Of a DNA stretch of 64,000 nucleotides, positions 16,578 through 58,300 are shown in pieces. The notes under the pieces are model-generated. The model saw nothing but the letters and a program-made list of their open reading frames with translations. It was not told the DNA's origin and did not search any database. Position numbers and translations under genes: made by a program. Location: positions 1 to 64,000 of the IMG/VR virus record IMGVR_UViG_3300009420_000006, one strand, 5' to 3'. Source of the DNA: a virus (Duplodnaviria > Caudoviricetes). The stretch's first letter is position 1; each line of letters begins with the position of its first letter.

Positions 16578-16658
16578 CTAAATAATTATTCTCATTATAA
16601 AGTGAGAATAGTTAATGCTATATTATCTCGAATATTTATAAAAATATATAAATAAAGT

Positions 16659-16689
16659 TTTGTAAATCAATATGACTGAATTAACTTTA
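16659..16689 (+). promoter_or_regulatory. Bacteroidota-type promoter for scaffold/MCP genes
   Basis: TTTG, 19-nt gap, TAACTTTA (variant); preceded by the inverted repeat TATTCTCA-N8-TGAGAATA near 16588-16611. Confidence 0.55.
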
Positions 16690-16735
16690 CAGTCATAGTA
16701 AGTAAAACCAAGATTTTAACAAAAAATAACTACAT

Positions 16736-18010: not shown

Positions 18011-18039
18011 TAATTATTAATTAACAAAAAACGAATAAA

Positions 18040-19605: not shown

Positions 19606-19617
19606 ATATATAAGATA

Positions 19618-19742
19618 GGTGAATTTAATGTTCACCATTCTCAGAGAAGTGTCCCCTCACCCACACTGTCCCTCCTCAGAGGGGACATACTTCTCTAACT
19701 TGAGTACTGGATTAAGTTCCTACCTGTTCAATCAGAGTACTC
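19618..19742 (+). other. structured intergenic region with three hairpins after MCP
   Basis: Stems GGTGAA/TTCACC, AGAGAAGTGTCCCCTC/GAGGGGACATACTTCTCT and GAGTACT/AGTACTC. Confidence 0.6.
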
Positions 19743-35820: not shown

Positions 35821-36825
35821 ATGTCATACTATTATAAATACGATTTTGTATCCCCAGAGCCTCTATATGCAACAGTAAAAGAAGAACTTAAAAGTTACTT
35901 TGACACTGGAGCTGTAGATGATTTATTATTTCCTACCTACCTAGACAAATGTCTTAGGAAGATGGGTAGGACTACATTTCAAATTACTACTGAGATTTTG
36001 TTTATAGAAGACTTTCAAGCAAGACTTCCTGATAACTTTTATGCAGTAAGAGAAGCATGGATGTGTGCAGTAGTACAAGGAAATCCTTATCCTGCAGCAT
36101 CTTCTTTATATACTCAAGCAGTTAATGCTACTACTATTCAAGTAGCTCCTTTAACAATAGGAGGAACTCCTTGTGATAATCCTTCATGTCAACATCCTAG
36201 TTGTGATGGTACGTGTATGCCTACAGTAGTACAGGCTGTATACAAAACAAATAGTGAAATTCCTAGATCCTGGAGAAGGTCTTACTTATTAAAACCAGGA
36301 AATATATCTGCACGTAAAAGTTGTAATTTATCCTATACTAATTCGTGGTCACAATTTAATCAATTAACTTTAGCAGGTCGTGAGTTTACACCTGGTGCTT
36401 CTTCCTTTGACTCTTTTGATATCAGAGATAATAACTTTGTAACAAACTTTAGATCCGGAACAGTACATCTAGTATTTTATGCAACAGATTATGATAAAAT
36501 AGGCAATCAATTAATACCTGATAACTTTCGTGTTAGAGAATATATTGAAGCATTTATTAAATTCAAAGTATTTGAAACTCTTACAAACCAAACAGTAGAC
36601 GAAACATTTAATCAATTACAAACTAAACTCATTTATCATAAACAGATAATGGATGAAGCTTGGATAATGGCAGAAACAGAACTTAAAAAAGAAACAGTTT
36701 ATCAAAAGCAAAGAAAAATTATTACTGACTTAAATCGCTTCAACCAATATGAACTTCCAGATGCAAAATCTCAAGTATCAGGTAGGTATTCAAATAGACG
36801 TTGGAGACGTAATGGTTCTAATTAA
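35821..36825 (+). CDS. tail tubular (Ttub-like) protein
   Basis: Between the IHF-like and Tstab-like genes; TNFRSGTVHLVFYA...LIPD...EYIEAFIK. Confidence 0.7.
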   Translation: MSYYYKYDFVSPEPLYATVKEELKSYFDTGAVDDLLFPTYLDKCLRKMGRTTFQITTEILFIEDFQARLPDNFYAVREAWMCAVVQGNPYPAASSLYTQAVNATTIQVAPLTIGGTPCDNPSCQHPSCDGTCMPTVVQAVYKTNSEIPRSWRRSYLLKPGNISARKSCNLSYTNSWSQFNQLTLAGREFTPGASSFDSFDIRDNNFVTNFRSGTVHLVFYATDYDKIGNQLIPDNFRVREYIEAFIKFKVFETLTNQTVDETFNQLQTKLIYHKQIMDEAWIMAETELKKETVYQKQRKIITDLNRFNQYELPDAKSQVSGRYSNRRWRRNGSN

Positions 36826-43514: not shown

Positions 43515-44377
43515 AAATAATAAATCTAAAAATAACAGCCGCTAGTCCTAACATAGGACCTTTTAAGATCACAGATGACCTAGGAAATATCTTAGGAGAT
43601 AATGTATCATTAAGTTCTTTAGTACAGGGTATAGCCTACTCAGTAGAAAATGAAGTTAGTGTTGTAACATTAGAGTCATCTGGTGATTGTAATTTTAAAA
43701 AACAATTTACAGTTGATAATCAAGTTAGTAATGAAGAATATATAGATGCTACATTTAGACCTCTTAGAACAGGATGTTTGTGGACACATTTAAGAAATGA
43801 TACTTTATACAATTACTACTATGGAGATATTGCTCCTTATATTATTGAGTATCCTTTTGCATATAAATATAATGATCAGATCCTTCAAAATATAAGAGAT
43901 TACAGTAAGGTGTATACATATATCCCTTCTACTTTAGGAGAGTTTGATTCTAATAGTAAGATACAAACAGATGATAAATACTTTAATAAAGCTGTATTAT
44001 ATAATGGACAACAGTCTACAGGTATATTAGAACTTGTTCCTAAACCAATGAATAATTTAAGTTCATATCTACAGTATCCAATATTAAATACTGACAGTAA
44101 AACTATTACTTTTTCAAAGACAGATAGTTTCTATCAATATAATACTTTCTGGGCACTACAAAAAAATGATCAAGTGCCTTTATTTAAAACATCCTGTGAA
44201 TCTAAATCAATAGACAAGGTTGTTAATCAGGACAATATGAACTATGGTGACCTATCTTTTAAGAAGTCACAACTAAGAGCTAAGAACGTTAAGGTGAGAC
44301 ATATACTAGATAATACTTCGACTTCACATATTGTAAGTCAGTTTATTGTAGCACCAGCACAAATATCATATCATTAA
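43511..44377 (+). CDS. shared-module paralog 5 fused to a probable Tstab C-terminal domain
   Basis: ATG at 43511 (ATGA overlap) preferred over the track start at 43451; GPFKITDD module, then LWTH...YYG..APYIIEYP...FNKAVLYNGQQSTG. Confidence 0.7.
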   Translation: MKIINLKITAASPNIGPFKITDDLGNILGDNVSLSSLVQGIAYSVENEVSVVTLESSGDCNFKKQFTVDNQVSNEEYIDATFRPLRTGCLWTHLRNDTLYNYYYGDIAPYIIEYPFAYKYNDQILQNIRDYSKVYTYIPSTLGEFDSNSKIQTDDKYFNKAVLYNGQQSTGILELVPKPMNNLSSYLQYPILNTDSKTITFSKTDSFYQYNTFWALQKNDQVPLFKTSCESKSIDKVVNQDNMNYGDLSFKKSQLRAKNVKVRHILDNTSTSHIVSQFIVAPAQISYH

Positions 44378-47300
44378 TGGCACTAACACCAGGTAAAGCA
44401 AAAAAGATGTTAAGCGATGGAACTGTCCATGGTCAATCTCTGTCTAATAAACAGAAGAGATACTTCGGTGCTATAGCTGGAGGGGCAACACCTATGAAAG
44501 CAATCAATGGTGGTTGGTTAGATAAGTTTGAAGATGGAGGTTCATTACCTAAAGCCCAAGATGGCTGGTTCAATGATGGAGAAGAAAAAGAAGAAGAGCT
44601 AATACCAAATTTAACAGATGAGCAAAAAAGAATAAAAGAATATAATATTAATTATTATGAATCTGACAAATTTAAGACAAGATTAAAGAATATGCATGAG
44701 GATTATCCTAGTACCTTTTATCTAGATAAAACAAAAAAAGAAAGGGATAATTTACTAGAAACTAATCCACGCAAATCAGGAGTGCTTGATAGGATGGTTT
44801 CTAATATGGAAAATAACACCGGCTATTATAAACCTTTAGATGTAGACAGTGTGAGTAAACGTGCTCTAAAGAAATTGAAAACGTCAAACAGTGTTAGTTA
44901 CAATAATGAAGACGATAGTCATGCAGGTTTGCCCATAAATCTTAATAGTACAGAGAAAGGAATGACAGGTCAGATAAAACCTAAACTATTTAATCTTGAT
45001 GAAGTTTTTAGTCATGAATTAGTACACAATGTACCGGTTCCTTATACTGATGTATTTAACGATACTGTATCCTCTAAAATGACAGGAGCTTTAGACTGGC
45101 ATGATAAAGAAGTTGAAGAGACTAGGGCGGATGTTGGTGGATTACGATACATCTTAAATAAAGCAGGAATTAATGATGCATCAAAAGAAGATTTTAATAT
45201 TAAAGATTTAAAGCAAGCATCTGAAAAACTTAAAGATAGTGATTTATTTAATAGGCTTAGAACTATATATTCAAATGACAAGGATTTTATATGGATAATG
45301 AATAACATAGCTTCTACAGATAATTTAGATAGTCAAACATCTAACATATCAATGGCTGAAGATGGTACAGAAATACCTAAAGCTCAAACTGGTGACAAGT
45401 ATACAATAGTACCAGAAGATGGTATAGAGTTAGATGAGGTTGTTATAACTGGAAAGTCAAACAAGAGAAAAAAGAAAGATAAAATAAGAGAGGAGTTATT
45501 TAAGGATATGCCTGATTTTATGAAGTATGGCGATGATGATTATACTCTTTCAGCTGAACAACAGCAACAACTTGATGATCTAGGTATTACAGACTTGGAT
45601 AGTTACAATGAATATTTTGGAACATCTTATGATAGAGAGAATGCAGGAAATGAGTTTAATTATCTAAACTCTTATAAGCCTGAACGTGAAGAGTTGATTA
45701 GTAGTATTCATAGTGCTACTAATGCAGCAGCAAAAAATATAATTACAGCTGCATCATTTATACCTAGTCCAATAAGTGGTGCTAGTTTATTGTCTAAAAC
45801 ACCACAAGCATATCGAGCTCTTGCTGGTCCTCTTAGACAAGCTTATAAATATACTGCTAATAGTCCTGTTGGAAAAGCTGCTTATAAGTATATAGGAAAA
45901 CCTTTTAGAAAGGCACTGGACTATAAACCAGGAGGTGGACCATTTAGTGTAGGGAACTATGCTGATATGGGTAGTGTAGGGTATGGTGCTTATAACATTG
46001 CTCCAGATGTAAAAGAATTATATAACAATCCTAGTTGGTCTAATGCAGGAAGTGTAGGTATAGATGCTTTAGGATTTACTCCTTTCTTAAATAAAAAGTT
46101 TACTGGGCCTCTTAAGAATACATTGCTTCCAAACTTCTCAGATGATGTAGCAAACCTTAAAAATGCTATAACCGGTCCATTGAATAAAATTACCAATCCT
46201 TTGTCAGACTTTAGAGTAAACCTCGGAAAAGGGATAGAAAGATTTAAAACTCAAGGTAATGTTAATGCTAGGCCATTCTGGAAAGGGTTTAATGAGAACC
46301 CTGTTCCATCGGCTGCTAAATTTGACAAAGATTGGGTAAGTGCTCCAGGATTTGATCAAAGATATGACAAGTTTGTATATCGTCATCAAGACCCTAGATT
46401 ATTGGATTTGCAAAAAAGTAATGATCGGCTATATAATTCAGGTATGGATCTGCTAAGACAAAAACAACCTGACTTATTTGCACAAGGTCCTAGCACCTAC
46501 GGATCACAGTTGACTATGCCTCTTTCACAAATCTCTAAAATGTTTCCAAGACTTAAACTTGATGCTGATATGTTGATGGGTATTAAGCGACAAAATGCAG
46601 GTATTCTTAATACATTAGATGCAGCCAAGAATGCTAGTATGAACTTAGATCAAATAGCGGCAACAGGAAAGTTTACTAAAGTGTTTAATACTAATTCCCT
46701 TAGTCCAGATGATTTAAAGTATTTTGAAGAAAACTCTAACGTTCTAGGATTCTTTAGAAATTCAGAGAATAGAGCAATTATAAACGAAGATCAACTAAGA
46801 GCATACTATGGAAACAATCCAAGTAAATTGAGTGCCTATATGAGATCTGTTCTAAATCATGAGAATTCTCATGCACTAGATGCTGGTGCAAGAGCTACTA
46901 AACCTCTATATAATAATACTACTAGGGCAGTTATTCCTGAAATAGTTGATGATGGTAAGAATGTTTTAACAGGAGTAACTCAGAAAAATATTGAGGAAGT
47001 GTGGCCAGGTTTCAAAAATCTATCAAAAAAACGACAAGAAAAACTTGCATATCTATCTGAACCAACAGAAGTTGTAGCAAGAATTAAAGAGTTAAGAAGC
47101 CAATTCATTCCTAAAAAGTTTGTAGGAACTGATAAGCAGTATGAAATGTCTGACGATTTAATAAAGAAAATAATGTCAGAAGGAAAGAAAGGTAACACTT
47201 CAGTAGATGCAACCTTCTTTAGACTGATAAAAGATAAAGAGGCATTTAAGAACCTGTTTAAAGTTCTTCCTGCTGTAGCAGCACCCATTGCTATTGGTGC

Positions 47301-48969
47301 AGGTCAACAAAGAAATGGTGGTAGTATACCTAAAGCTCAAATTGGTGACAAGGTAGCAGCTATAGCAAGTTCTATGGAAGCTAATGAAGAAGATGGAGGA
47401 AGACCGCCTGCAAGTTTTAATAGTATAGAAAGTATTGGGGGTTTCAAAAGATATATGCAAGATGCTTTTAACTCAAGTATGGATGAAGAAGGTTTGTGTA
47501 GAGATAACACATGTGTTCAAACAGTAAAAGATTTTTATAGTAAAGCTGGTGTAAAGGCTATGCCTGACGATGTTTATAACAATAGAGAGTTTTTAAAGAA
47601 CTTTAAAGAGTATGGGTTTGAAGAAATATTAGATCAGAAAAATCTTCAACCAGGAGATCTATTACAATACTACTATGGTGAAGATAGTGAAGGCATAGAT
47701 GTAAATCAGGACCTTTTAAACTTTCCATATCACATGGGCGTTTATGTAAACCCTGGAGAGTACATTGGAGATGGTGATAGTGAAGCTCCTATTCAAAGAC
47801 AAAGTATGTATACAGGTACTAAGGATGGAAAAGAATACAAGAAGGATCCTTTCAGAGCATTTAGATATACTAAACAAAACAAAAATGGTGGATGGTTATC
47901 TAAGTATGAGAACGGTGGTGTGATAGAAGATGACAGAGGGCAATGGGCACACCCAGGAAAAATAACTAAAATCAACTCCAACAAAATAACAATGAAGGGT
48001 GTTAACTACCCTGTACTTGGAATATCTGATACTGGTGACAAGAAGATGATGCAACCAGGAAAAGATTACAAGTTTGATGGTAAATCTGTAACAGAGTATC
48101 CTATGGCACAGGATGGACTTAAACTTAAAAAAGCAACACCAAGCTTTCCATATATAAACAGAGTGCCTGACGTTTCACCTCAAGTAGAGTTTTTAAAGAA
48201 CTGGACAAATTCTCCAAGAGGTCAAGAACTATTAAGTAATAGTTTTGATGGAGATGAAAAAGATATAGAGAGAGTAACTTCTAAAAGAATAAATAATTTA
48301 GATAATGTTGATGTTAGTATGGATGACAATGCTGACGATTTCCTAGGTAGATATAATCCTAGTAGGCATGACATTAAATTAAACTCTAGTCTTCTAGATA
48401 CATCAGAACCTAAACAAGTAGGTAATCAAGATGAAGATGTAATAATTCATGAACTCTCACACGCTCAAGACTTTTCACCAGGTGCTGAGTTTAACAGATT
48501 AACTATGCCATTTAGTGATCAAAAGCTCATTAAAGACTATAGAAAGAAAACTCTTAAAGAGACAAAGAATTTAGATGTGGAGAGAAAGTTTAAGAAAGAT
48601 CTTAAAAAAAGAATTAACTATATAGGTGATCCAACAGAAACTAGAGCAAGACTTAATTCTATTAGATATTTCTATGAAACTAGTCCAATTGGAAAAGAGG
48701 AAGGAATGCCTAGTATATTGGATTCAGAGGTAACTCCTGAGATGATGGAAGTAATGAAAGACAATGCTCAGTTTAAAGAATTAAGAGAAGTATATGATGA
48801 TGATCAGATACTAGAACTCCTAAATACAATATCGGATAATAGTAAATCTTCTGGTAAATCTAATATGAGATATGCAAAACAGGGAAGATCCTTGGAGAAG
48901 AAGGCTCAATTTACTAACTTTACAAATTATAACACCCCAAAACCAGGAGGCTGGTTAGACAAATACTAA
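44377..48969 (+). CDS. multi-cassette cargo-like protein: three HExxH zincin-like modules and an NlpC/P60-like domain
   Basis: HELVH (45013), HENSH (46858), HELSH (48448); CVQTV...LQPGDLL...YHMGVY; recurrent PKAQxG and GGWL junctions. Confidence 0.75.
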   Translation: MALTPGKAKKMLSDGTVHGQSLSNKQKRYFGAIAGGATPMKAINGGWLDKFEDGGSLPKAQDGWFNDGEEKEEELIPNLTDEQKRIKEYNINYYESDKFKTRLKNMHEDYPSTFYLDKTKKERDNLLETNPRKSGVLDRMVSNMENNTGYYKPLDVDSVSKRALKKLKTSNSVSYNNEDDSHAGLPINLNSTEKGMTGQIKPKLFNLDEVFSHELVHNVPVPYTDVFNDTVSSKMTGALDWHDKEVEETRADVGGLRYILNKAGINDASKEDFNIKDLKQASEKLKDSDLFNRLRTIYSNDKDFIWIMNNIASTDNLDSQTSNISMAEDGTEIPKAQTGDKYTIVPEDGIELDEVVITGKSNKRKKKDKIREELFKDMPDFMKYGDDDYTLSAEQQQQLDDLGITDLDSYNEYFGTSYDRENAGNEFNYLNSYKPEREELISSIHSATNAAAKNIITAASFIPSPISGASLLSKTPQAYRALAGPLRQAYKYTANSPVGKAAYKYIGKPFRKALDYKPGGGPFSVGNYADMGSVGYGAYNIAPDVKELYNNPSWSNAGSVGIDALGFTPFLNKKFTGPLKNTLLPNFSDDVANLKNAITGPLNKITNPLSDFRVNLGKGIERFKTQGNVNARPFWKGFNENPVPSAAKFDKDWVSAPGFDQRYDKFVYRHQDPRLLDLQKSNDRLYNSGMDLLRQKQPDLFAQGPSTYGSQLTMPLSQISKMFPRLKLDADMLMGIKRQNAGILNTLDAAKNASMNLDQIAATGKFTKVFNTNSLSPDDLKYFEENSNVLGFFRNSENRAIINEDQLRAYYGNNPSKLSAYMRSVLNHENSHALDAGARATKPLYNNTTRAVIPEIVDDGKNVLTGVTQKNIEEVWPGFKNLSKKRQEKLAYLSEPTEVVARIKELRSQFIPKKFVGTDKQYEMSDDLIKKIMSEGKKGNTSVDATFFRLIKDKEAFKNLFKVLPAVAAPIAIGAGQQRNGGSIPKAQIGDKVAAIASSMEANEEDGGRPPASFNSIESIGGFKRYMQDAFNSSMDEEGLCRDNTCVQTVKDFYSKAGVKAMPDDVYNNREFLKNFKEYGFEEILDQKNLQPGDLLQYYYGEDSEGIDVNQDLLNFPYHMGVYVNPGEYIGDGDSEAPIQRQSMYTGTKDGKEYKKDPFRAFRYTKQNKNGGWLSKYENGGVIEDDRGQWAHPGKITKINSNKITMKGVNYPVLGISDTGDKKMMQPGKDYKFDGKSVTEYPMAQDGLKLKKATPSFPYINRVPDVSPQVEFLKNWTNSPRGQELLSNSFDGDEKDIERVTSKRINNLDNVDVSMDDNADDFLGRYNPSRHDIKLNSSLLDTSEPKQVGNQDEDVIIHELSHAQDFSPGAEFNRLTMPFSDQKLIKDYRKKTLKETKNLDVERKFKKDLKKRINYIGDPTETRARLNSIRYFYETSPIGKEEGMPSILDSEVTPEMMEVMKDNAQFKELREVYDDDQILELLNTISDNSKSSGKSNMRYAKQGRSLEKKAQFTNFTNYNTPKPGGWLDKY
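45373..47352 (+). repeat. 27-nt direct repeat pair flanking a cassette
   Basis: ATACCTAAAGCTCAAACTGGTGACAAG (45373-45399) versus ATACCTAAAGCTCAAATTGGTGACAAG (47326-47352), one mismatch. Confidence 0.85.
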
Positions 48970-48973
48970 TGAT

Positions 48974-51900
48974 ATGAAAGCTCAAATATTAAAAATAGCA
49001 GGCGTTAAGTCTGAAAAAGAATTCTACAAGAAGTTTCCTACAGAAGAAGCTTTTATGAAGAAGCATGGGAAAGAAATGAATAAGCTTGAGAAAGCTCAGA
49101 GGGGTAAGAATGTAGATCCTATTTTATTTGAAGATATAGAAAAAGAAGCTCTTTCACAGTTTGAACCAATTAAGGATCAAGCAATGAACTATGGTATAGA
49201 CTCTCTTACAACTGATGATGAAAAAGAAGCTGCATATATGAATCAGTTAAAACAAGCTGCATTATTAAAAGATATTGAAGGAGGATCATCAGGAATGAGC
49301 TTTGGTGATATTGGAGGTATGATAAAAGGTGTTAGTGGAATGTTTGGTGGTGGTGCAGAAGGTGCTGGTGGTGGTGAAGGTATGGGTGAAGGTGCGAGTG
49401 AGATGATGAGTGGAATGGGTGGTATGATGAAAAAAGGTGGTAAGGTTGAAAAGTTTACACCTCATATGATGTATGACCCTAAGACTAAGAAGGGTAAGAA
49501 AGCTAAAACATTAAAGGAGCACTTAGCTCTTAAGAAAAAAGGTTGGGGTCATGATACACCTAAAGCTCAATTTGACGGAAGTTACTTTGAGGACCAAGGT
49601 ATAACTGTACCTGAGCAATCTCAATATGGTAATGCTGATGGAGCTGGTATGTTCGGAAAATCATTTAGTACAGGACAATACAATGAAGATGGAAGTGCTA
49701 TGAACTTTGGTCAAAAAATAGGAGACTTTGTGCAAAATGACTTAGGTGCAATAATGCAAAGTCCTATCACGAAAGATATCATGCAGGGTCTAGGTAAGAT
49801 AAAAGGTCAGAAAGATGCTTTAAAAGATTTAAGGCAAATGGAAGCAGTTACTGATATAGCACTTACTGCTGCTATGAGTGAGCCAGAAAAAGTAGAAAGA
49901 GATTATGTTCGCCCAGAAGATTTTGTAAATACAGGAGAAGAGTTCTTTCCAGTATATGGTGTAGGTACAAACGTACTTGCAAAGAACGGAGCTACACTAT
50001 TTAACAATCCAGACTATGCACCAATACGTAATGTAAATAAAGCTAAAACTTTTATGCATGGAGGTTATTTACCTCAAGCACAGGATGGGGGAATTGGTGG
50101 TAGTAATGTTTCATATGATCAAGCCGGTAATTTTCTTGGAAACCTGGCATACGGAAATAAATCTCAGAGAGATGCAGGAAGTAACATAGGTGGAGGAGTT
50201 GGAAGAGGTATAGGTACACTTGTTGGTGGACCACTTGGTGGTGCTATTGGTGATTTTATTGGAAGTGGTATTGGAGATCTAGTAGATAGAAATGATAGAA
50301 GACAAAGAATAACAAGAGAAAATATTGATTCTAATGTTAAAGACATGACTTATATGCAAGTAGGTCCTCAGATCCAGGCAGGTTATGCATCTCATGTGAG
50401 AAAAGGTGGAAGAGTTCCTAGTCCTAATAATGACTATGGTATGATAGGAGCACCAGGTCCACAAGTATTAAAATCTTTTGATGGTAAGAACTTAAACAAC
50501 ATGTTGCAAAAAGCTTCTAGAATGCCAGATACACTTAAACAAGGTGGTTCTGTTTCTGGTAATGGAAATATTAAAACTCTATGGGGTGGAGATGTAAATG
50601 CTGTATCATATAATCCTTATGCTGGAGGTCAGAGTATGTACTTCTCTGGAAACTCTCATGACTATAGAGATCCTGAAACAGGAGAGACTGGTATTGGTGT
50701 AGCTTATGGACCTCAGTCTGTAGCTAATAATGAAGCTGTAGTAGAAGTTGAGAATGAACCAGCACAGATATTAGAAGAGAACGGAAAAGAAAATCTAGTT
50801 ATATATGGAGATTTAAAAATACCAAAAGGTTATGCAAGTGAGATTGGTGATGAGAAAGCTGGAGGTCAGAAGTTTAAAAACTATGTAAATAATCTTAATG
50901 ATGAAGAAGCAAAAATTAATAAACAAATGGGAACAGCTGTAGATAATGCTGCTGATATTGATAATACTAAATGGGGAGAACTTTTAAGATCTACCTCAGA
51001 TGCTATTATTAATGGTGGTGATATGAAACTAAAAAATATTGCTAATAAGAAAAAAATATTATCTGATCTTCAGACTGCATTGAATGACACGTTTGAAGAG
51101 AATGGTATAGAGGGTAATAAGTTTATAACTAAGGGAGTACTTGAAGATATTAAAGATACAGAGGACTATGCTAAGAATGGTAAGAAAGAAACATATACTA
51201 AATATGCTAAGGGTGGTAGAAAGATACCTAAAGCTCAAAATGACGGTAGCCTAGGTCCAGATGAAGGTCTTACTTTAAATGAGTTACCTTTTAAATCAGC
51301 TGAAGAAGCAATCGCTGCTGGTTATACTTTAGACGAAGATAAAAACTCAGAAAACTTTGGTAAATATTATATAGATGAGGAGTCATCAGACATGGAGACA
51401 AACACTGAAGTTAGCTTTAGGGAAGATATTCCTGAAGGTCAAAAGTTTGGAGGTTCCGATATAGGAAAAATGGTTAATAAAGAAATAACTTCTGAAGAAT
51501 ATAATAAGTGGAAAAAGGATAACAAATGGTTTTTTGATAAGAACCCTGATTGGAAAGCTGATACAAAAGAAGATGTAAAGTTATTCCAAAGAGAATTTAA
51601 TAAGGTAAATCCTAATAATCTGCCATCTATTAAAGTTGATGGATTATTTGGTGATCAAACAATATCAGCTAGATTTAAAAGTGAAGATAGTGAGACACCT
51701 AAAACAGAAAGACGTTACAGAGATGTTGAGGTAGGAGAAGAAGAAATTACTACTGAAGAAACTACTACTGTTAAAGGTAAAATACCATTTGATCCAAACT
51801 TACTTAGACCTCTATTTGATAGAGATGTAAAAAATGATTTAGACTATAATCAAATATTACCAGAGATAAATGCAGCTGCAAACAATCAACTTGATCCTGT

Positions 51901-52618
51901 ATATGCACAATCCTTTCAACCTAGGTTGAGAGTACCTTATGATATTAGCATGCAAGATGAAATGAATGCTATTACTTCAGCTACACGAGCAGCTACACAA
52001 AACCCAATAGTTCAAAGTAACCCTGCACTACTAGCAGCAATGCAAGCTCCACAATATGAAGCTATTAATCAAGTTAAGGCAAAGCAATTTAGAGCTAATC
52101 AGCAAATGAAAGATACAGTATATTCTGGTAATCTTGAAACACTTAATCAAGCAAGAATGACTAATCTGGGTATTTATGATCAACAACAAACAAGACAAAC
52201 TCAAGCTGTAGCTAATACAAAAGCAACACAACAAGAGATTGTTAAGTCTATATCTGATAAGTATCAAAGAAACAAACTAGAAAATAGAACAGAGAAAGTT
52301 CTTAGTAACCTATTTCCTAATTATAACTTTAGTGATAGTTTGGATTTAAACAACCAAGGATCAACTAACTTTTCTATACCTAATATATTAGGAGGACAGG
52401 CTGGTAATACAGGAAATGGCTTAAGTAGTATTCTTAATGTTGTTGGACTGCAAGGATTACAACAGTTAATGCAAACTCCTGGTTTTAATCCAGACCCAAA
52501 TCAAACTACCACTGATACTACAACAGCACGACATGGAGCTAAGCTCACACCGATAAAAAGAAAAGTAAAAAAGAATCAGAGAAATAGTAATATTCTAAGA
52601 GAATATAAAAATCTATAA
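48974..52618 (+). CDS. cargo/ejection-like protein with Gly-zipper and PG-binding-like motif
   Basis: GIGTLVGGPLGGAIGDFIGSGIG; GNSHDY...GIGVAY...EVENEP; KLFQREFN...VDGLFGDQT; many xxxGG and KAQ motifs. Confidence 0.65.
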   Translation: MKAQILKIAGVKSEKEFYKKFPTEEAFMKKHGKEMNKLEKAQRGKNVDPILFEDIEKEALSQFEPIKDQAMNYGIDSLTTDDEKEAAYMNQLKQAALLKDIEGGSSGMSFGDIGGMIKGVSGMFGGGAEGAGGGEGMGEGASEMMSGMGGMMKKGGKVEKFTPHMMYDPKTKKGKKAKTLKEHLALKKKGWGHDTPKAQFDGSYFEDQGITVPEQSQYGNADGAGMFGKSFSTGQYNEDGSAMNFGQKIGDFVQNDLGAIMQSPITKDIMQGLGKIKGQKDALKDLRQMEAVTDIALTAAMSEPEKVERDYVRPEDFVNTGEEFFPVYGVGTNVLAKNGATLFNNPDYAPIRNVNKAKTFMHGGYLPQAQDGGIGGSNVSYDQAGNFLGNLAYGNKSQRDAGSNIGGGVGRGIGTLVGGPLGGAIGDFIGSGIGDLVDRNDRRQRITRENIDSNVKDMTYMQVGPQIQAGYASHVRKGGRVPSPNNDYGMIGAPGPQVLKSFDGKNLNNMLQKASRMPDTLKQGGSVSGNGNIKTLWGGDVNAVSYNPYAGGQSMYFSGNSHDYRDPETGETGIGVAYGPQSVANNEAVVEVENEPAQILEENGKENLVIYGDLKIPKGYASEIGDEKAGGQKFKNYVNNLNDEEAKINKQMGTAVDNAADIDNTKWGELLRSTSDAIINGGDMKLKNIANKKKILSDLQTALNDTFEENGIEGNKFITKGVLEDIKDTEDYAKNGKKETYTKYAKGGRKIPKAQNDGSLGPDEGLTLNELPFKSAEEAIAAGYTLDEDKNSENFGKYYIDEESSDMETNTEVSFREDIPEGQKFGGSDIGKMVNKEITSEEYNKWKKDNKWFFDKNPDWKADTKEDVKLFQREFNKVNPNNLPSIKVDGLFGDQTISARFKSEDSETPKTERRYRDVEVGEEEITTEETTTVKGKIPFDPNLLRPLFDRDVKNDLDYNQILPEINAAANNQLDPVYAQSFQPRLRVPYDISMQDEMNAITSATRAATQNPIVQSNPALLAAMQAPQYEAINQVKAKQFRANQQMKDTVYSGNLETLNQARMTNLGIYDQQQTRQTQAVANTKATQQEIVKSISDKYQRNKLENRTEKVLSNLFPNYNFSDSLDLNNQGSTNFSIPNILGGQAGNTGNGLSSILNVVGLQGLQQLMQTPGFNPDPNQTTTDTTTARHGAKLTPIKRKVKKNQRNSNILREYKNL

Positions 52619-52659
52619 CAAATCTGATGAGAAAGAATTACCAGAATAGGTTATCCTAT

Positions 52660-52691
52660 CTTGGAAAGTTCTATAAATAATAATACATTTG
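52660..52691 (+). promoter_or_regulatory. Bacteroidota-type promoter
   Basis: CTTG (52660-52663), 20-nt gap, TACATTTG (52684-52691), just upstream of ATG 52699. Confidence 0.6.
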
Positions 52692-52698
52692 TTAAATT

Positions 52699-55377
52699 AT
52701 GGCATCATACCTAGATAACATACCTACCTTCAATGAATACGTAGAGCAACGTCCACAAGATGAGATGCTTAAGGTTGGTCTGTTCAAACAACAACGTTAT
52801 GAAGAAGGCGTTCAAAGAATTCAAAAGAGCATTGATAATATTGCTGGACTGGATGTAGTTAGAGATGTAGATAAAAAATATCTACAGTCTAAATTAAATT
52901 CTTTAGGGTCACAACTTTCTGGTGTGGCAGGAGGAGACTTCTCAAACTTTCAACTTGTCAATACTGTAGATGGTATGACAAATCAATTAGTTAAAGATCC
53001 TAATATATTAAACGCTGTAGGGTCTGCAGCTAAATATAGAAAGCAACTAGAGAATCAAGAAAAGATTAATGTAGATGGTAAAGGTTCTCAATCCAATGAT
53101 TGGGACTTTAATAGAAGAGTACAACAATGGTATGATGGAGGTCTTGAAGATTCATTCAATGCACAATTTAAACCTTATGTTAATTACAATGAAGAAGCTA
53201 TGAAAATAGTTAAAGCTCTTGCTTCTGATAGTACTGAGAATGATGTCTACATGGGTAAAGATAAAAATGGAAGAACAGTAATATATGATGCAATTACAAG
53301 AACTAAGATAGAAGGTATAACTCCAGATAAAATACAAACTGCTTTAAGTGCTGGTCTTACACCAGATGCTTTTGCACAAATGGGTATAGATGGAGAATTT
53401 CAGTATTCAAATCAAGATGATGAAATATTTTCACAGAACGTTAATGAAAGTTATAGTTCTACTTTTAATGCACTCTTGGAAGAAAGAAATAGCCTAGAAA
53501 GTTTAATGAGTAAAACATCCACTGCTGAAAAAAAGATACAGATTCAAAACCAAATAGATGCTTTAGATGCTCAAACTAATTTACTAAAAGAAGAATACGA
53601 TAATGTATCTAGTACATTTACTAATGGAGATGTAGACAGTGCAAAAGCTAGACTATTTTCTACTAACTGGATGAGAGATTTTTCTAACTCTATGTCTAGT
53701 CAGAATGTTTCTCAAACTATACAAACCAATCCTTTTAAGACAGTACAGTTAAAACAGATGCAGATGCAACAAGCTGCTGCTCAGTTTAATGCTAAATATC
53801 AACAGACAGAAAAATATAACAAATCACGACTAAAAATAGAACAAGCTAAATTAGATCTAGCAAAAGATCCTTATGGAGGAGTTTCTCAAAGCAACCCAGG
53901 AGAATTAAGTCCTGCAGAGATTATAGCCAGAGCAGAAGTAAATATTTCCAATGATGAAAAACTATTAGAAACTAGAACATCAAATGTACTTTCTAAATAT
54001 AATATTACTCCAGATGAGTTAAGTAACATGATGATTCTGTTAGATTCTAATCCTGCTTCACTACGATCAGATATTAAACAAGATCTAATTCAAATTCAAA
54101 AATTATATAAAAAGAATACTAACTCACAAAATGTAATTACGCAATTACGTGATGAGTCTAAATTGTTGTCTCCAGATCCTAGAGGTGATGGTGGGACGCT
54201 TACATTAGATGAATATAATTATACAACAGCTGAGGCTTCAGATCTTTATAAACAATTTGCAGTAGACTATATGGATGATGTATATGTAGACAGTTTGCCG
54301 ATGATATTTATGAATCCTGGATCTACTAATAAAATTACTGATGAGTCATACGCATTAGCAGAACAGGAATTAACACCTAAAGAATTTAACTTATTTAAAT
54401 TGTTTTATATTGAGGAGCAAGATGCAAATAATCCATTTGAATTTAATGATCCTTATGATGTAAATTATGTTAATCCTCAAGATAAGAGAGATATAGATAA
54501 TAACATTCGAGACTATATGATTGATACTAGAGGTATTATGGAACGTGTAAATGAAGAAAGAAATCAATATATAAGTGATGAGCTTGCAAAAACTACTATT
54601 ATTCCTCAAGCTGTATCTTATCAAGTTCCCTTAACTAATACTGCAGAGAAGTCATCCTTTTCTTCAGCGTTGTTAGGAATAGCAAATGATAGACAAAGTC
54701 TTGATGCAGACTTTGCAAACAAGATACGTACAATAGCAAATGATATTAGTATTGCTAATGTTATTACACAAAGTCTAGAGGGTGGAGATTATCAACTTAC
54801 TATAGTTGGTGATGGAGGTGGTCCAGGTACTGTTCCTAACAAAGAAACTATTTCTCTTAGTGAAGCACAATACGAAGAATTATTTCAAGGTAGGTTTGAT
54901 AAAAGTCCTGAGGTACAATTCTTTGATGATAACTATCTTAACCCTATGTTAAATACTGTAATGCCATTAATACCAAACCCTAATTCACCAAGTGGTTATA
55001 GTAAAGATAATCAAACATTTTGGACTACTGCTACCGATGGTCAATATGAAACAACTGCAGAAAATGCTGGACTATCAGGACAAGCTGACTTTCCTAACAC
55101 TCAATACTATGGTGTTAGTGGAAATCTTGTAAGTGATAATAATCCTAAGTCATTAGAAACTACATATAAATTAATATTAAATATATATGATCCAGTTACT
55201 GATAAGTTAATTCCAAGCATAATGCCAGAAATGATAATAAGAAAAGAGCAAGTAGGTCCTACTTTACAAACCATAACTGATGAAGTAATATATCAAATTC
55301 TTAACGGAACTGATGCACAGTTTACTAATGAAAAATTCAACGAATTAAAAAAAGCAGCAGAAGGTAATCAGAACTAA
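52699..55377 (+). CDS. cargo/ejection-like protein preceding the giant protein
   Basis: 892 aa, helical; KQQRYEEGVQRIQ...GGDFS N-terminus; crAss synteny. Confidence 0.65.
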   Translation: MASYLDNIPTFNEYVEQRPQDEMLKVGLFKQQRYEEGVQRIQKSIDNIAGLDVVRDVDKKYLQSKLNSLGSQLSGVAGGDFSNFQLVNTVDGMTNQLVKDPNILNAVGSAAKYRKQLENQEKINVDGKGSQSNDWDFNRRVQQWYDGGLEDSFNAQFKPYVNYNEEAMKIVKALASDSTENDVYMGKDKNGRTVIYDAITRTKIEGITPDKIQTALSAGLTPDAFAQMGIDGEFQYSNQDDEIFSQNVNESYSSTFNALLEERNSLESLMSKTSTAEKKIQIQNQIDALDAQTNLLKEEYDNVSSTFTNGDVDSAKARLFSTNWMRDFSNSMSSQNVSQTIQTNPFKTVQLKQMQMQQAAAQFNAKYQQTEKYNKSRLKIEQAKLDLAKDPYGGVSQSNPGELSPAEIIARAEVNISNDEKLLETRTSNVLSKYNITPDELSNMMILLDSNPASLRSDIKQDLIQIQKLYKKNTNSQNVITQLRDESKLLSPDPRGDGGTLTLDEYNYTTAEASDLYKQFAVDYMDDVYVDSLPMIFMNPGSTNKITDESYALAEQELTPKEFNLFKLFYIEEQDANNPFEFNDPYDVNYVNPQDKRDIDNNIRDYMIDTRGIMERVNEERNQYISDELAKTTIIPQAVSYQVPLTNTAEKSSFSSALLGIANDRQSLDADFANKIRTIANDISIANVITQSLEGGDYQLTIVGDGGGPGTVPNKETISLSEAQYEELFQGRFDKSPEVQFFDDNYLNPMLNTVMPLIPNPNSPSGYSKDNQTFWTTATDGQYETTAENAGLSGQADFPNTQYYGVSGNLVSDNNPKSLETTYKLILNIYDPVTDKLIPSIMPEMIIRKEQVGPTLQTITDEVIYQILNGTDAQFTNEKFNELKKAAEGNQN

Positions 55378-55388
55378 CTAAGAATAGT

Positions 55389-58300
55389 ATGTCAAAAGAA
55401 ATAAAGAAAGCACAAACAGGTATAACTCTACCACCTATGGCAACTGTTCCTAACAGTCCTTCAGGTAGACCTTTGTCTAGTGGGTATACACCACCAGGAC
55501 TTCCTGGCCCTATGCCTAATATAGCTACACGTCCTAACCTAGGAGTAGCTAGTTCTAATAGTAATAAACCTAGTGCTCTACAGTCTTTAATAAGAAATGC
55601 TGGAACTCCTGGAAATATAGGAAAGGGATCTAGAAACACAACAGCAGATGAGTACGAAGGATCTGATAGATATGATTATTTTCAACCAACATCAATGGGA
55701 GTTGATAATGAGAATCTAGCTGGACAGTATCAATCATTTGGAAGTAAAGCGGTGAACGGTGTGGGTAAAGGTCTTATCCTTACAGGTACAACATTCTTAC
55801 AAGGTACTGTAGGATTAGTAAATGGTGTATATCAAGCAGTCAATGATGGTAAGTTTTCGTCTTTCTATGATAATGAATTTAATAGAGGATTAGATGAAAT
55901 CAATAAGTGGTCTGAAGATGCTATGCCAAACTATTATACTACAGCAGAAAGTAATGCTAATTGGTATTCTCCTAAATATTGGAAAACCGGTAACTTTTTA
56001 TTTGATGGTGTAATTAAGAATCTTGGATTTGCAACTGGTGCTTATCTTACAGGTAATGCATACACTAGTGCGTTAAAAGCACTTCCAGGAACCTCTAGAT
56101 TATTTTCTATGGGTAAGGCAGCAGAAACTTTAGCTGCTACAGAAAAAGGATTAAGTGCAGCAAATAAAGGAGCTGGTGTATATGGTGAAGTGAAAGCTTT
56201 ATCAGATAGTTTCTTAACACAATATAACTTACTTAACCCAGCAGGAAGAGCTGTGGTAGCAGGATTATCTACAACTGGTGAAGCAGGAATTGAAGCTCTT
56301 CATAACAGTAATGAGTTTAGACAAGAACTTATAGATGAATTTAAAGCAGAGTTTGGAGTGATACCTTCAGGTGTTGCTATGGAAAATATAAACGCAGCTG
56401 TAGAAGGAGCAGGTAATTCTTCTTTCTATGCTAATGTAGGAATACTAGCTGCAAGTAACTATATTATGTTTCCACGTATTGCACGTTCTGGATACAAAGC
56501 AAGTAAACGAAACATTAATGGATTAGTAAGAGAGATAGATGATATTGCATATGAGGGAGGAAAGTATGCAGCAAAGACATCTAAGCTACATCCTATACTA
56601 CGTACTCTAAACAATATTAGACCTTACACATTTACTGTTTCAGAAGCAATAGAGGAAGTTTCACAGTATGGAACTAGTGTAGGAACACAAGATTATTATA
56701 ATAAGCAATATAATAACGAAGCAACTAGTTGGTTAACATCTATAGGTGTAGGTTTAACTAAAGGTGTCTTTAGTGATGAAGGTGCAAAGAATGCATTGAT
56801 TGGTGGATTGTCTGGTGGTATAATGACTGGGAGAGGTAGATATAGAAAAAACAAACAAAGAGCAGCAGATACAGCACAAGCTGTAGAGCTACTAAATGAT
56901 TTTCAACTCTCTGATTTTACAAAAGAAAGTATATATTCTAATAACAGAGCTGGTGTTTTAGGAGAAGAATTAGAACAAGCTGCTGAAAGAGGTGATGCTC
57001 TATCATATAAAAACTTAGAAAACCAATACATAATTAATTATCTTACTCCTAGAATAAAGTACGGTAGGTTTGATTTAGTTCTGCAAGATATAGCAGACAT
57101 GAAAAAGCTTGCTTCTACTGAACAAGGTTTTGCTCAATTACAAGCAGAAGGAAAGGTACAAGATGGAGATACTAAAGAGGCTTTTATTGCAAGATTAGAA
57201 AACTTCAAACAAACAGGTAAAGATGTACAGAGTCTGTACCAATCTTTAGAACTTAGATATGGAGGAATTACTGAAAAGGGACCTGATGGAAAACAATACC
57301 GTGTTTATGGTCCAGATGTAATAAACAAAATGATATATGCAGCTTCTACAATTGCAGATGCAGATAATCGTATACCTCAATTAACATCTGATATACAAGC
57401 AGCTGTTCCTACTTTAGATATACAACAAATATTACAAGATATACTACGTGGAGAAACTGAAAGTTTTAATAATGCTGTAGACACTATATCAAATCTAGAC
57501 GTACTGTCTGACATAAAAGATGAGTTAGGAGAAAAGCTAAATGATGCAGCTGCCCTAATTAAGATTAGAGAGCTAATGCTACAGGAGTATGAGCTTATAA
57601 AAACTAAACCTAAAAACTTTCAAGAGAAGCCATTAAGTCAACAAGATGGTGTTAAAACATACGAGGAACTATTAGAAGATGATGCCAATAGCTTTGTGGT
57701 TAAAACTAAGAAGGGAGAACAGTCATTACAAATAGGACAAGAGTATTTTGTAGGACAAGGTGTAAACTTTGAAGGGGAAACACCTCTTGGTGAACCAGTA
57801 GTAATAAGTAGTTTTGTTCCAGTAGGACAGAATGAAGATGGAACTATTCAGATCAAAGATCAGTCTGGTCAGGTAAGGGATATATCACCAGATGTTTTAT
57901 TAGATTATAATGTAGGTAGAAAATCTACATTAGTTAATAACAAGACAGCTAATTTCTATTACAGAAATAGAGATAAAATATTTCAATTTAACTTTGGTAA
58001 AAACTTTGGAGGTAAAAGACAAGGAAGACTTATGTATAATAATGGGAAACTGTTTTTTGTATATAAAGATTCTAATGGTACTATTCTTAAAAAAGAATTA
58101 GCTAATAAGTTTTTTGCACCACAGCCTGGATTTGATCAAGCAAGAATTACTCCAGTAGGGACAGTTACTGCTGAACAACAAGATGCTGCAAATCAGTTTC
58201 TTAGTCCAGAGGAGTTAGCAAAGAATGAACAAACTCTTCAGTCAAATAGAGAGAGTAGGCTTAAGATAATGAATGACTTAGGCGTAGAGTCTAAGAGAAG

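Follow-up and report, generated by a model that had tools for sequence, protein, structure and literature searches.

Genomic context of the motif-bearing genes

The window analyzed here, the first 64,000 nucleotides of the viral record IMGVR_UViG_3300009420_000006, belongs to a crassvirus-like phage: Crass_capsid, CrAss_Ring_2, CrAss_Ring_1, and crAss_MUZ were all matched above the Pfam cutoffs, and the gene order is that of crAss001. The region of interest contains the following genes:

34601..35329, + strand: tail ring protein 2 (Pfam CrAss_Ring_2, E 6.7e-18, above cutoff)
35821..36825, + strand: tail ring protein 1 (Pfam CrAss_Ring_1, E 9.6e-9, above cutoff)
36831..43514, + strand: muzzle protein, 2227 aa (Pfam crAss_MUZ, E 1.9e-30; PHROG virion structural protein)
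43451..44377, + strand: conserved protein of ~290 aa, function unassigned, adjoining the polyvalent gene (287-291 aa in related loci)
44377..48969, + strand: P0001, polyvalent, polymorphic putative cargo protein, 1530 aa
48974..52618, + strand: P0002, second motif-bearing protein in the cargo position, 1214 aa
52699..55377, + strand: P0003, conserved protein of ~890 aa, without motif
55389..55421, + strand: N-terminus of a giant protein, MSKEIKKAQTG (4348 aa in the full record)

P0001 and the genes that follow it lie directly 3' of the genes for ring 2, ring 1, and the muzzle, which is the position of the cargo genes in crAss001. According to the available sections of Bayfield et al. (2023, PMC10172136), the crAss001 genes gp45 and gp46 come after the muzzle gene, and their products are expected to be stored in the head or tail and ejected ahead of the DNA; as here, ring 1 and the muzzle gene immediately precede them and the giant genes follow. 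By tblastn against 50,697 phage records, P0001 matched 7 Cellulophaga records only, with no crAss001-type match, and neither P0001 nor P0002 showed homology to gp45 or gp46 in this phage collection. A search of bacterial and archaeal genomes (185,579 species) gave a single match. Two proteins of the Cellulophaga phage phi4:1, gp041 and gp040, annotated as virion proteins detected by MS/MS, carry pieces homologous to a zincin-like cassette (zincin-1) and a beta module of P0001, respectively. The first-pass annotation had called these genes cargo genes, and both their place beside the ring 2, ring 1, and muzzle genes and the pieces they share with gp041 and gp040 agree with this. Based on synteny and distant homologues, we regard P0001, P0002, and the giant protein's N-terminus as probable cargo (ejected proteins) of a crassvirus-like phage of marine Bacteroidota.

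No copy of the motifs described below was found in the muzzle protein or in the protein encoded at 43451..44377, and the latter had no match in Pfam or PHROG. The giant protein matched a PHROG family of unknown function at its N-terminus, with no PHROG match for the rest; its identity as an RNA polymerase found no support, and a regular expression for the D.DGD signature gave zero matches. Among the ORFs of the head block, no match to a prohead-type protease was detected. The only protease-like gene (trypsin-like) is at 26547-28880, among the tail-fiber genes, and its product has a long Thr/Ser-rich stalk.

Organization of P0001 and P0002

The family of P0001 is large and mosaic: a constant leader of 45 aa opens the protein, the middle varies, and the tail, again constant, ends in GGWLDKY. 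The parts of P0001 are:

44377..44508, + strand: constant N-terminal leader, aa 1-44 (in 86/121 family members)
44509..44565, + strand: composite junction GGWLDKF-ED-GGSLPKAQDG, aa 45-63 (inside AlphaFold segment 36-80, pLDDT <50)
44566..45375, + strand: cassette with HELVH, zincin-like 1 (PHROG 24249 'tail protein' at aa 87-321)
45376..45393, + strand: junction PKAQTG, aa 334-339 (homology borders cluster at 321-380; pLDDT <50 over 314-367)
45394..47313, + strand: large middle cassette or cassettes including HENSH, zincin-like 2 (folded core at ~aa 633-966)
47314..47346, + strand: junction NGGSIPKAQIG, aa 980-990 (borders cluster at 981-1000)
47347..47883, + strand: cassette, candidate NlpC/P60- or CHAP-like cell-wall hydrolase (atlas feature matches 0.91-0.93, NlpC/P60 and CHAP clusters)
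47884..47919, + strand: junction NGGWLSKYENGG, aa 1170-1181 (57 HSP starts in 1161-1180; pLDDT 25-42)
47920..48099, + strand: beta module of ~60 aa (ITMKGV...), constant chassis (in 104/121 members)
48100..48117, + strand: junction PMAQDG, aa 1242-1247, cassette insertion point
48118..48870, + strand: cassette, zincin-like metallopeptidase 3 (HELSH, Glu ~60 aa downstream; folded in the AlphaFold model)
48871..48966, + strand: constant C-terminal tail YAKQGRSLEKKAQFTNFTNYNTPKPGGWLDKY (in 104/121 members; pLDDT 34-41)

The leader has 22 invariant columns among 16 loci, and its profile was matched in 1469 clusters of 50% identity (E<=1e-3), nearly always at residue 1. Three cassettes of P0001 contain HExxH. 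The HELVH cassette is 31% identical to the C-terminal part of phi4:1 gp041, while in the C-terminal HELSH cassette H209, E210, H213, and E272 (HExxH...E) are invariant in 27 aligned sequences. The best Pfam matches of P0001 both fell below the cutoff: Peptidase_M91 with 23.4 bits (cutoff 25) and SprT-like with 18.9 (cutoff 25.6). A Foldseek comparison of the C-terminal model with the PDB returned nothing at E<=0.001, its top rows being zinc peptidases at E ~0.1, so that these matches of a predicted model are only a hint of a zinc-peptidase fold; phmmer of P0001 against PDB sequences gave chance-level rows only. The cassette at 47347..47883 had no Pfam match, and its assignment as an NlpC/P60 or CHAP cell-wall hydrolase is a lead only. 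The small beta module, all-beta in the AlphaFold model (pLDDT 73-82), aligns with aa 30-84 of phi4:1 gp040 (36% identity, pairwise E 3e-6).

Because its relatives carry ART-PolyVal, SLT, amidase, and kinase cassettes, the P0001 family can be assigned to the polyvalent proteins. ART-PolyVal, SLT, Amidase_2, PG_binding_1, and Pkinase were each present in 2-3 of the 28 members scanned, ART-PolyVal being found in relatives of P0001 only. In a PHROG scan of eight smaller family members, seven had no family.

P0002 begins with MKAQ (aa 1-4) and has further motifs at 49088 (EKAQRG), 49559 (PKAQFDG), and 50060 (GGYLPQAQDGG), as well as the stretch YAKGGRKIPKAQNDG at 51203-51247. It is weakly similar to phi4:1 gp040 (E 4e-4). 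No match to P0002 was obtained by tblastn in the phage collection or by pattern search in viral contigs, and its relatives were therefore drawn from the loci found with P0001.

Two recurring motifs and where they occur

Two motifs recur in these proteins, GG-x-[VLI]-PKAQ-x-G and NGGWLxK[YF], with the broader forms GG-x-[VLI]-[P/K][K/M/Q]AQ-x-G and NGGWLxK[YF](xxGG). All the peptide strings listed in the first-pass annotation were present in the translations of P0001, P0002, and the start of the giant protein, and the DNA word it had pointed out, CCTAAAGCTCAA, was exact at 45376, 47329, 49559, and 51227, with an extra copy with one mismatch at 44548. Allowing at most one mismatch, the five copies compare with 0.47 expected, and 0/100 shuffles reached five.

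Among the six-frame ORFs of at least 60 aa in the window, PKAQ occurred five times against 0.034 expected from composition and GGWL three times against 0.01. All five PKAQ copies were in P0001 and P0002. A combined regular expression matched nine times in these two proteins (mean 0.033 and at most 2 over 5000 shuffles). PKAQ was found 117 times (2 expected) and GGWL 311 times (1 expected) in the 120 best P0001 homologues, counts that are not independent because the proteins are related; across 250 family proteins, AQxG was found 676 times against 60 expected, again in related and thus pseudo-replicated sequences. The consensus originally given as GG-x-x-PKAQxG fits the 117 PKAQ copies of the 120 best homologues, with G at -4 in 105/117, at -3 in 84/117, and at +2 after Q in 113/117, and V/L/T/I at -1.

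In the 79.7-kb record and 17 loci, the motifs were confined to the variable gene, the gene that follows it, and a stretch of 6-13 residues at the start of the giant gene product. Right after the leader, loci have either GGWLDKY or (E/D)KAQxG, an alternation directly 3' of the leader which suggests that the two motif classes are equivalent. The C-terminal end is GGWLxKY in 100/120 homologues of P0001, the next gene begins with MKAQ or MKAE 4-7 nt past the stop codon in 12/13 loci, and the giant gene starts with M-x(3-6)-[LK]-[PK]KAQxG in 8/10. The P0001/P0002 gene border reads GGWLDKY-stop-(4-7 nt)-MKAQ, an order also seen in the composite joint within P0001.

The AlphaFold pLDDT was <50 at all motif sites, and the motifs are predicted to be short peptide signals in flexible, low-confidence linkers. 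The model of residues 1-1200 has a mean pLDDT of 48.8, with 58% of residues <50, and does not suffice to delimit the cassettes at 172-257, 428-632, and 1052-1200; because of this overall quality, the low confidence of the motif stretches within it carries little weight.

Cassette exchange at the joints

The motifs demarcate the cassettes, at the border of constant and variable parts. Homology borders in P0001 pile up at the motif positions 45-63, 334, 985, 1171, 1242, and 1508, and three smaller border clusters without a motif were seen near aa 250, 500, and 600. Together with the low-confidence AlphaFold segments over the motifs, this pile-up supports their placement at domain borders, as had been noted from the sequence. 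When 121 proteins of the family were cut at the motifs, 557 segments were obtained, 506 of them in families with at least 70% mutual coverage. At a mutual coverage of at least 90%, each segment had 24.3 partners on average with cuts at the motifs, and only 11.6, 8.5, and 12.9 with cuts slid by +40, +80, and -40 aa. The cassettes were arranged in 95 different orders among the 121 proteins, in agreement with the polymorphic arrays initially proposed; the mosaic family comprised 291 matches at 5-100% coverage, and the segment family of the large middle cassette (family 2) had 69 copies with 17 different left neighbors.

Recent exchange could also be followed at the DNA level. When blocks of 200 nt or longer with 88% identity or more were taken, 44 of 86 recombination borders, counted in related sequences and so pseudo-replicated, were within 8 aa of a strict motif, against a null mean of 6.7% and a maximum of 16% in 1000 randomisations; the other 42 were more than 8 aa away. 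One such block border, shared with the locus L006, lies inside the junction NGGSIPKAQIG (aa 980-990). The loci L010 and L011 match almost perfectly as far as EYPMA(K/Q)DG, and the match resumes at AK(D/E)G(K/E)SLV; between the two motif copies, L011, but not L010, has a zincin cassette. This is the PMAQDG site of P0001, at which short forms read ...EYPMAKDGKSLV... and long forms place a cassette between PMAQxG and AKxGxSLV. In relatives of P0002, PKAQxG copies flank indels, and the homologue in L014 has an insert flanked by PKAQDG and PKAQTG. Thus, in-frame exchange, insertion, and deletion of cassettes occur preferentially at the motif joints, since every cassette has the same joint, and the gain and loss of variable regions at the motifs expected by the first-pass annotation was observed both in the border counts and in these examples. 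An apparent split of the polyvalent gene of L021 at a motif was rejected, the cause being a frameshift inside an SLT-like cassette.

Comparison with known systems

In the CdiA (VENN) and Rhs (DPxGL) proteins, a short conserved peptide marks the constant/variable border, at which variable cassettes are swapped. The Rhs motif doubles as a self-cleavage site, and is therefore a precedent for the dual-use signal of the first-pass annotation, which was to act as a cleavage or capsid-loading tag in the protein and as a recombination joint in the DNA. The present motifs are similar in their border position and in the exchange breakpoints found at them, but CdiA and Rhs have one border per protein, a C-terminal toxin, and a paired immunity gene, whereas the present proteins have as many as 8 joints each, cassettes may stand anywhere, there are no immunity genes, and the vehicle is a phage virion. 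MARTX toxins, which are secreted bacterial toxins, also have arrays of effector domains that differ between strains by recombination, and an internal cysteine protease domain cuts their unstructured linkers after delivery, at Leu-based sites. The candidate proteases here are instead zincin-like and absent in 31/121 members, and cleavage is putative. In phage T4, the internal proteins and Alt have a capsid-targeting sequence that is removed by the prohead protease, an N-terminal signal common to several packaged and injected proteins, one of them an ADP-ribosyltransferase. The phage studied here resembles T4 in having a short signal common to several proteins whose packaging is presumed, and differs from it in that no prohead protease gene was found and that the motifs are also internal and C-terminal.

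Also close in kind are the polyvalent proteins (Iyer et al. 2017, PMC5512222), which are encoded by phages or conjugative elements, carry many effector or enzyme domains per polypeptide, are presumed to be delivered with the DNA, and for which processing by embedded zincin-like peptidases is a published hypothesis in the sections of that paper available. The P0001 family shares with them ART-PolyVal, zincin-like peptidases, cell-wall hydrolases, and kinases. In the available text of PMC5512222, 'linker' and 'crAss' each occur 0 times, and the present proteins differ from those described in it in that their leader and tail are fixed and a junction peptide recurs at the cassette borders. These three features are new, while the polyvalent kind of protein was already known. 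Unlike the cargo of crAss001, for which the available part of PMC10172136 reports no motifs, the present proteins are mosaic, rich in enzymes, and far larger.

Possible function of the motifs

The reading that we prefer, with a probability of roughly 0.5, is that these are mosaic cargo proteins in which linker motifs, selected as peptides, demarcate the cassettes, that exchange takes place there, and that one common factor reads the motifs, processing being the favored outcome. Of the first-pass interpretation, this retains the cargo position, the polymorphic cassettes, and their gain and loss at the motifs, and gives up the dedicated DNA signal. Proteolytic processing would separate the cassettes in the head or after ejection, and the cutting might be done by the zincin-like peptidases within the proteins or by a protease supplied in trans. 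The natural ends (...GGWLDKY-COOH, and M-KAQ... at the next gene) would then resemble the two halves of a cut joint. Since 31/121 family members have no HExxH and keep the motifs, in-cis processing by the zincins cannot be general. Two specific cleavage rules were discarded. The K common to both motif classes and the trypsin-like protease of the phage led us to consider a lysine-specific cut at L-x-K, which fails as a general rule, the K position being M in 95, Q in 29, and V in 19 of the 676 xxAQxG copies; the Thr/Ser-rich stalk and tail-fiber neighborhood of the 26547-28880 protease also speak against its being the enzyme. The adenovirus protease has the consensus (M/L/I)xGG|x, and reading NGGW in this way fits the copy after the leader only.

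If DNA words such as CCTAAAGCTCAA were primary and served recombination, the conservation of the peptide would be a by-product. In favor of this, a single 12-nt word encodes four of the window's five PKAQ copies (P=0.002 with codon usage taken into account), three copies have the 16-nt word ATACCTAAAGCTCAAA in common, recent recombination borders are concentrated at the motifs, and direct motif repeats flank inserted cassettes. Across related phages (34 distinct PKAQ copies), however, the Ala codon is GCT in 47% and GCA in 47%, as in the background, so that the exact 12-nt word is not conserved; the two commonest 12-mers are tied with 12 copies each, and AAA, CAA, and CCT are the only codons mildly enriched. 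The codons of the GGWLDKY copies differ by position and are position-specific rather than homogenised, and shared identity of 9-16 nt is short for homologous recombination. Fixed residues with drifting synonymous sites are the signature of selection on the protein, and by these codon patterns selection maintains the peptide, and not the DNA word. We thus regard a primary DNA signal as very improbable. The least probable reading is that the motifs are passive linkers, remnants of gene fusion (C-terminal GGWLDKY, N-terminal M/PKAQ) tolerated as spacers without a function of their own. The order of elements at the P0001/P0002 border matches that of the internal joint, and fusion and fission do occur at the joints, since phi4:1 has the beta module fused to a P0002-like protein. 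Neutral spacers would decay, though, and the motifs have not: G, A, Q, and W/L/K/Y hardly vary, although synonymous sites drift and the neighboring cassettes are very different, and the more than tenfold excess of AQxG points the same way.

The motif data are compatible with a docking motif as well as with a processing site. Uncleaved docking or packaging peptides would bind a symmetric virion component (portal, rings, muzzle, or scaffold), and through them all three cargo proteins would be loaded, held in order, and released during ejection. This is a possibility to which we give clearly less credit than to processing. The motif is common to three proteins in the cargo position and at or near the N-terminus in two of them, it lies in linkers predicted to be flexible, and it persists in members devoid of HExxH; the copy at the extreme C-terminus, which cannot itself be a site needing cutting, suits a binding tag better. 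In crAss001, short segments of gp45 bind the portal and the tail barrel, and probably also the muzzle, as described in the available part of PMC10172136. For loading, on the other hand, there is no clear need of as many as 8 copies in one protein, sited exactly at the joints, and cell-wall hydrolases joined to ART or kinase cassettes would seem to need separating.

A bolder form of the processing reading, which we hold only tentatively and consider unlikely, is a dual-purpose code in an injected-effector 'polyprotein': one factor would cut every joint as the unfolded chain exits the virion, and the same joints would permit in-frame trading of cassettes. Candidates for the cutting factor are a protease of the phage and one of the host envelope that recognizes the invariant A-Q-x-G core, a core that resembles the signal-peptidase I sites of Bacteroidota, A-x-A|Q (the 'Q-rule'), given in the available part of PMC5837995. 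If true, the cell-wall enzymes would be freed by cutting in the periplasm, the ART or kinase effectors in the cytoplasm, and the phage would have a virion-borne counterpart of the MARTX and Rhs toxins in which leader, joints, and tail make up a readable grammar.

Significance

Crassviruses are among the most abundant phages, and how their cargo is chosen, loaded, ordered, and released are the questions that this locus addresses; the processing of polyvalent proteins also bears on this family. A grammar of fixed leader, joints, and tail with swappable enzyme cassettes makes these cargo questions directly experimental, and provides a rule for parsing thousands of unannotated giant phage proteins from metagenomes into functional units, leader-bearing clusters at 50% identity numbering at least 1469. 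The family also shows, in a clean natural case, how domains are shuffled in frame at conserved linkers, and its junction motifs are a concrete handle on how such phages load, cut, or deliver injected proteins.

Gene order and the cargo position

The source record (79.7 kb) is a virus genome of ~70% completeness. The large terminase in the window, identified with PHROGs, is 31% identical to those of the Cellulophaga phages phi4:1 and phi17:2, and gut crAss-like phages were matched too. The structural genes and the genes that follow them are listed below.

Main genes of the window (the first five assigned by Pfam, above cutoff)
14001-16577: P22-like portal
18040-19605: Crassvirus major capsid protein
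34601-35329: tail ring protein 2
35821-36825: tail ring protein 1
36831-43514: Crassvirus muzzle protein
Downstream of the muzzle gene, first in order, before P0001: 308-aa ORF
44377-48969: P0001, polyvalent mosaic protein, 1530 aa
48974-52618: P0002, second motif-bearing protein, 1214 aa
52699-55377: P0003, 892 aa
55389-68435 (end in the full record): P0004, giant ORF, 4348 aa

According to the available text of PMC10172136, the same position in crAss001 is held by the cargo proteins gp45 and gp46 and then by giant polymerase-associated proteins, all virion-borne and ejected. In phi4:1, gp041 and gp040 are homologues of parts of P0001 and P0002, and their GenBank annotation is that of virion proteins seen by MS/MS. 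Because of this gene position and this homology, the "cargo" label that the first-pass annotation gave to P0001 and P0002 seems reasonable, its basis being synteny and distant homologues. Beyond the window, at 73787-79733 of the full record (13787-19732 of locus L023), a further ORF with an open end codes for 1982 aa or more; it contains collagen-like GTS repeats and strongly matches tail-fibre PHROGs (E down to 1e-145).

Confinement of the junction motifs to three adjacent genes

All the peptide strings quoted in the first-pass annotation were found in the translations, and CCTAAAGCTCAA does occur in four exact copies. PKAQ was observed 5 times in the window (0.034 expected) and GGWL 3 times (0.01 expected), while a combined regular expression for the two junction motifs, GG-x-[VLI]-PKAQ-x-G and NGGWLxK[YF], gave 9 matches against 0.033 in shuffles (maximum 2 in 5000). 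No PKAQ was found outside P0001 and P0002 in the window's six-frame ORFs of at least 60 aa. Across the full record and 17 loci from related viruses, the motifs are confined to three adjacent genes: the variable gene (homologous to P0001), the next gene (~1200 aa, homologous to P0002) and the giant gene, there at residues 6-13. The nearby ring, muzzle, ~290-aa and ~890-aa genes of these loci have none. What does not vary is the core A-Q-x-G, of which 250 family proteins contain 676 copies (60 expected); the residue before it is variable (K, M, Q or V).

The cultured relative phi4:1 (L005) is without GGWL and PKAQ. Its gp040 (aa 30-84 and elsewhere) has looser joints, [FY]Q.GG or P..Q.GG, such as EVPNFQAGG, which aligns with EYPMAQDG, and the beta module of this phage is part of the P0002-like protein by fusion. 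The joint may therefore predate the sharp form that it has now.

A mosaic family with constant ends

A search with P0001 matched 291 proteins, with query coverage from 5% to 100%. The best 120 of these 291 homologues contain 117 copies of PKAQ (2 expected) and 311 of GGWL (1 expected), and GGWLxKY is the protein end in 100. When P0001 is added, the constant leader MA..KAKK.L.DG.V.G..L..KQK.YFGA.AGGATP.K is present in 86 of the 121 proteins and the tail ...LTNFTNYNTPQPGGWLDKY in 104. A leader profile matched 1469 50%-identity clusters (E<=1e-3) among 1.84 billion representatives, nearly all at residue 1, and among 88 new leader-bearing members of at least 400 aa, 66 contain at least two motifs and 63 end in GGWLxKY. 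A collection of genomes from 185,579 species of bacteria and archaea yielded one leader-bearing match only, on the 42.6-kb locus L024 in a metagenome-assembled genome labelled Saccharibacteria, most likely a mis-binned phage contig. Since there is this single match, and no PHROG family was assigned to seven of the eight smaller members scanned, the mosaic family is a feature of uncultured lytic phages.

ART-PolyVal, SLT, Amidase_2, PG_binding_1 and Pkinase cassettes were each detected in 2-3 of the 28 members scanned; P0001 contains three cassettes with HExxH and one that is probably NlpC/P60-like. This multi-enzyme content agrees with what PMC5512222 describes as polyvalent proteins. At 12100-12260 of the related locus L021 the polyvalent gene is broken into two ORFs (715 and 538 aa). 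The break is not at a motif: it comes from a frameshift within a cassette resembling a lytic transglycosylase (…AYHESG…), and may be either genuine or an error of sequencing.

Cassette exchange at the motifs

When P0001 was compared with its relatives, homology borders clustered at all seven of the motif sites in the protein, and three weaker clusters had no motif. In an all-against-all protein comparison, 23% of 8673 internal borders fell within 10 aa of a motif versus 8% at random, a figure that is descriptive only, the sequences being related. Cutting the 121 proteins at the motifs gave 557 segments, 506 of them in families whose mutual coverage is 70% or more, arranged in 95 different orders, the leader family alone having 23 different right-hand neighbours. 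At 90% mutual coverage or more, a segment had on average 24.3 partners; with control cuts slid by +40, +80 and -40 aa, the mean dropped to 11.6, 8.5 and 12.9. DNA blocks with at least 88% identity over 200 nt or more were delimited in 15 polyvalent genes; of their 86 distinct borders, 44 lay no further than 8 aa from a strict motif, compared with a mean of 6.7% and a maximum of 16% in 1000 randomisations.

Individual loci show the same. L010 and L011 are near-identical until ...EYPMA(K/Q)DG and again once AK(D/E)G(K/E)SLV... begins, and a zincin cassette stands between two motif copies in L011, not in L010; the P0002 homologue of L014 has a 57-aa insert flanked by PKAQDG and PKAQTG. The placement of the motifs at domain borders, as first proposed, is thus upheld by homology borders, segment families and DNA blocks alike, cassettes were gained or lost at them, and recent exchanges took place there. 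The two motif classes look interchangeable, as either GGWLDKY or (E/D)KAQxG, depending on the locus, directly follows the leader.

The first-pass annotation had also regarded the motif as a recombination joint in DNA. Four of the five PKAQ copies in the window are the same 12-mer (p=0.15 each, P=0.002 given codon usage). Among 34 distinct PKAQ copies from related phages, two 12-mers tied with 12 copies each, the Ala codon was at background (GCT 47%, GCA 47%), and only AAA (94% vs 68%), CAA (94% vs 77%) and CCT (79% vs 57%) were enriched; the codons of GGWLDKY differ with the position of the copy in the gene. A dedicated DNA signal is therefore not supported, and short shared nucleotide words may ease crossovers. 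Since residues are kept while synonymous sites drift, selection is on the peptide.

Gene borders and predicted structure

The polyvalent gene meets the gene after it at a near-fixed border (window 48967-48985). In 12 of 13 loci this border reads ...GGWLDKY(N/H) stop, 4-7 nt (TAATAATATG or TAATATG), MKAQ/MKAE-(I/F)LKIAGVKSE..., and the P0001/P0002 border mirrors the internal composite joint GGWLDKY-xx-...PKAQ. The giant protein starts M-x(3-6)-[LK]-[PK]KAQxG in 8 of 10 loci. Two stretches are of low complexity. A Pro-rich segment of ~70 aa (window 55422-55640, P0004 aa 12-85), directly after the KKAQTG start, is kept in kind across relatives, not in sequence; a Gly/Met-rich one in P0002 (49270-49430, aa ~100-150; GGMIKGVSGMFGGGAEGAGGGEGMGEG...) differs greatly in length from one relative to another and is followed by a conserved KKGGKVEKF(T/E)PHMMYDPKTGK block.

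An AlphaFold model of P0001 residues 1150-1530 (27-row alignment, mean pLDDT 66.8) has two folded units, a small beta module (pLDDT 73-82) and a zincin-like domain; H209, E210, H213 and E272 do not vary across the aligned sequences. Fold matches were weak, with zinc peptidases on top. Three stretches fell below pLDDT 50: GGWLSKYENGG, the residues that follow PMAQDG, and the tail from KKAQ to GGWLDKY. The model of residues 1-1200 was poor (mean pLDDT 48.8), and its three motif sites, all in low-confidence stretches, add little because 58% of residues are low-confidence.

Possible function of the motifs

The first-pass annotation had proposed a protein tag acting in cleavage or capsid loading. 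A single factor would read all the motifs, and proteolytic processing is the reading that we favour, because the family mixes cell-wall enzymes with cytoplasm-acting ones, because predicted zincin-like peptidases with intact metal-binding residues are embedded in 90 of the 121 members, and because natural protein ends (GGWLDKY-stop, MKAQ or MKAE, the start of the giant protein) resemble joint halves. Processing by embedded zincin-like peptidases is, moreover, a standing hypothesis for polyvalent proteins (PMC5512222, available text). Against it, HExxH is absent from 31 of the 121 members, a terminal motif needs no cutting, and no prohead protease was found among the head-block ORFs. The chief alternative is that the motifs stay uncut and serve in docking or loading, which fits the terminal copies and has a precedent in crAss001, where short cargo segments are described as bound to portal, barrel and probably muzzle (PMC10172136).

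If processing does occur, a lysine-specific cut is disfavoured by the variable residue before the A of AQxG. The core bears a loose resemblance to the A-x-A|Q sites that signal peptidase recognises in Bacteroidota (PMC5837995), and a cut of that kind would be no more than a bold possibility. At 26547-28880 (+) the window encodes a 777-aa protein in three parts: ~370 N-terminal residues resembling a chymotrypsin-fold serine protease (PHROG "protease", E 6e-14; Atlas matches to Trypsin_2/Nal1_C/S64 clusters, 0.96-0.97; motifs TNNHV, DAAIF and GDSGS), a Thr/Ser-rich stretch of ~130 aa with long TS repeats, and a C-terminal domain. Since its gene is among tail-fibre genes, this protein is more probably a tail appendage on the outside of the virion than a protease of maturation.

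Polyvalent proteins are already known, and so are the cargo proteins of crassviruses. The leader-joint-tail grammar was not found in print, nor were the two junction motifs or a connection of polyvalent proteins with the cargo genes of crass-like phages, which one paper mentions together in passing; a full-text search of main texts for the motif strings returned no phage paper, its PKAQ matches being unrelated, and the word "linker" is absent from the available text of PMC5512222. The comparisons presented here show the motifs to be conserved linker peptides that delimit exchangeable cassettes in cargo-position proteins.
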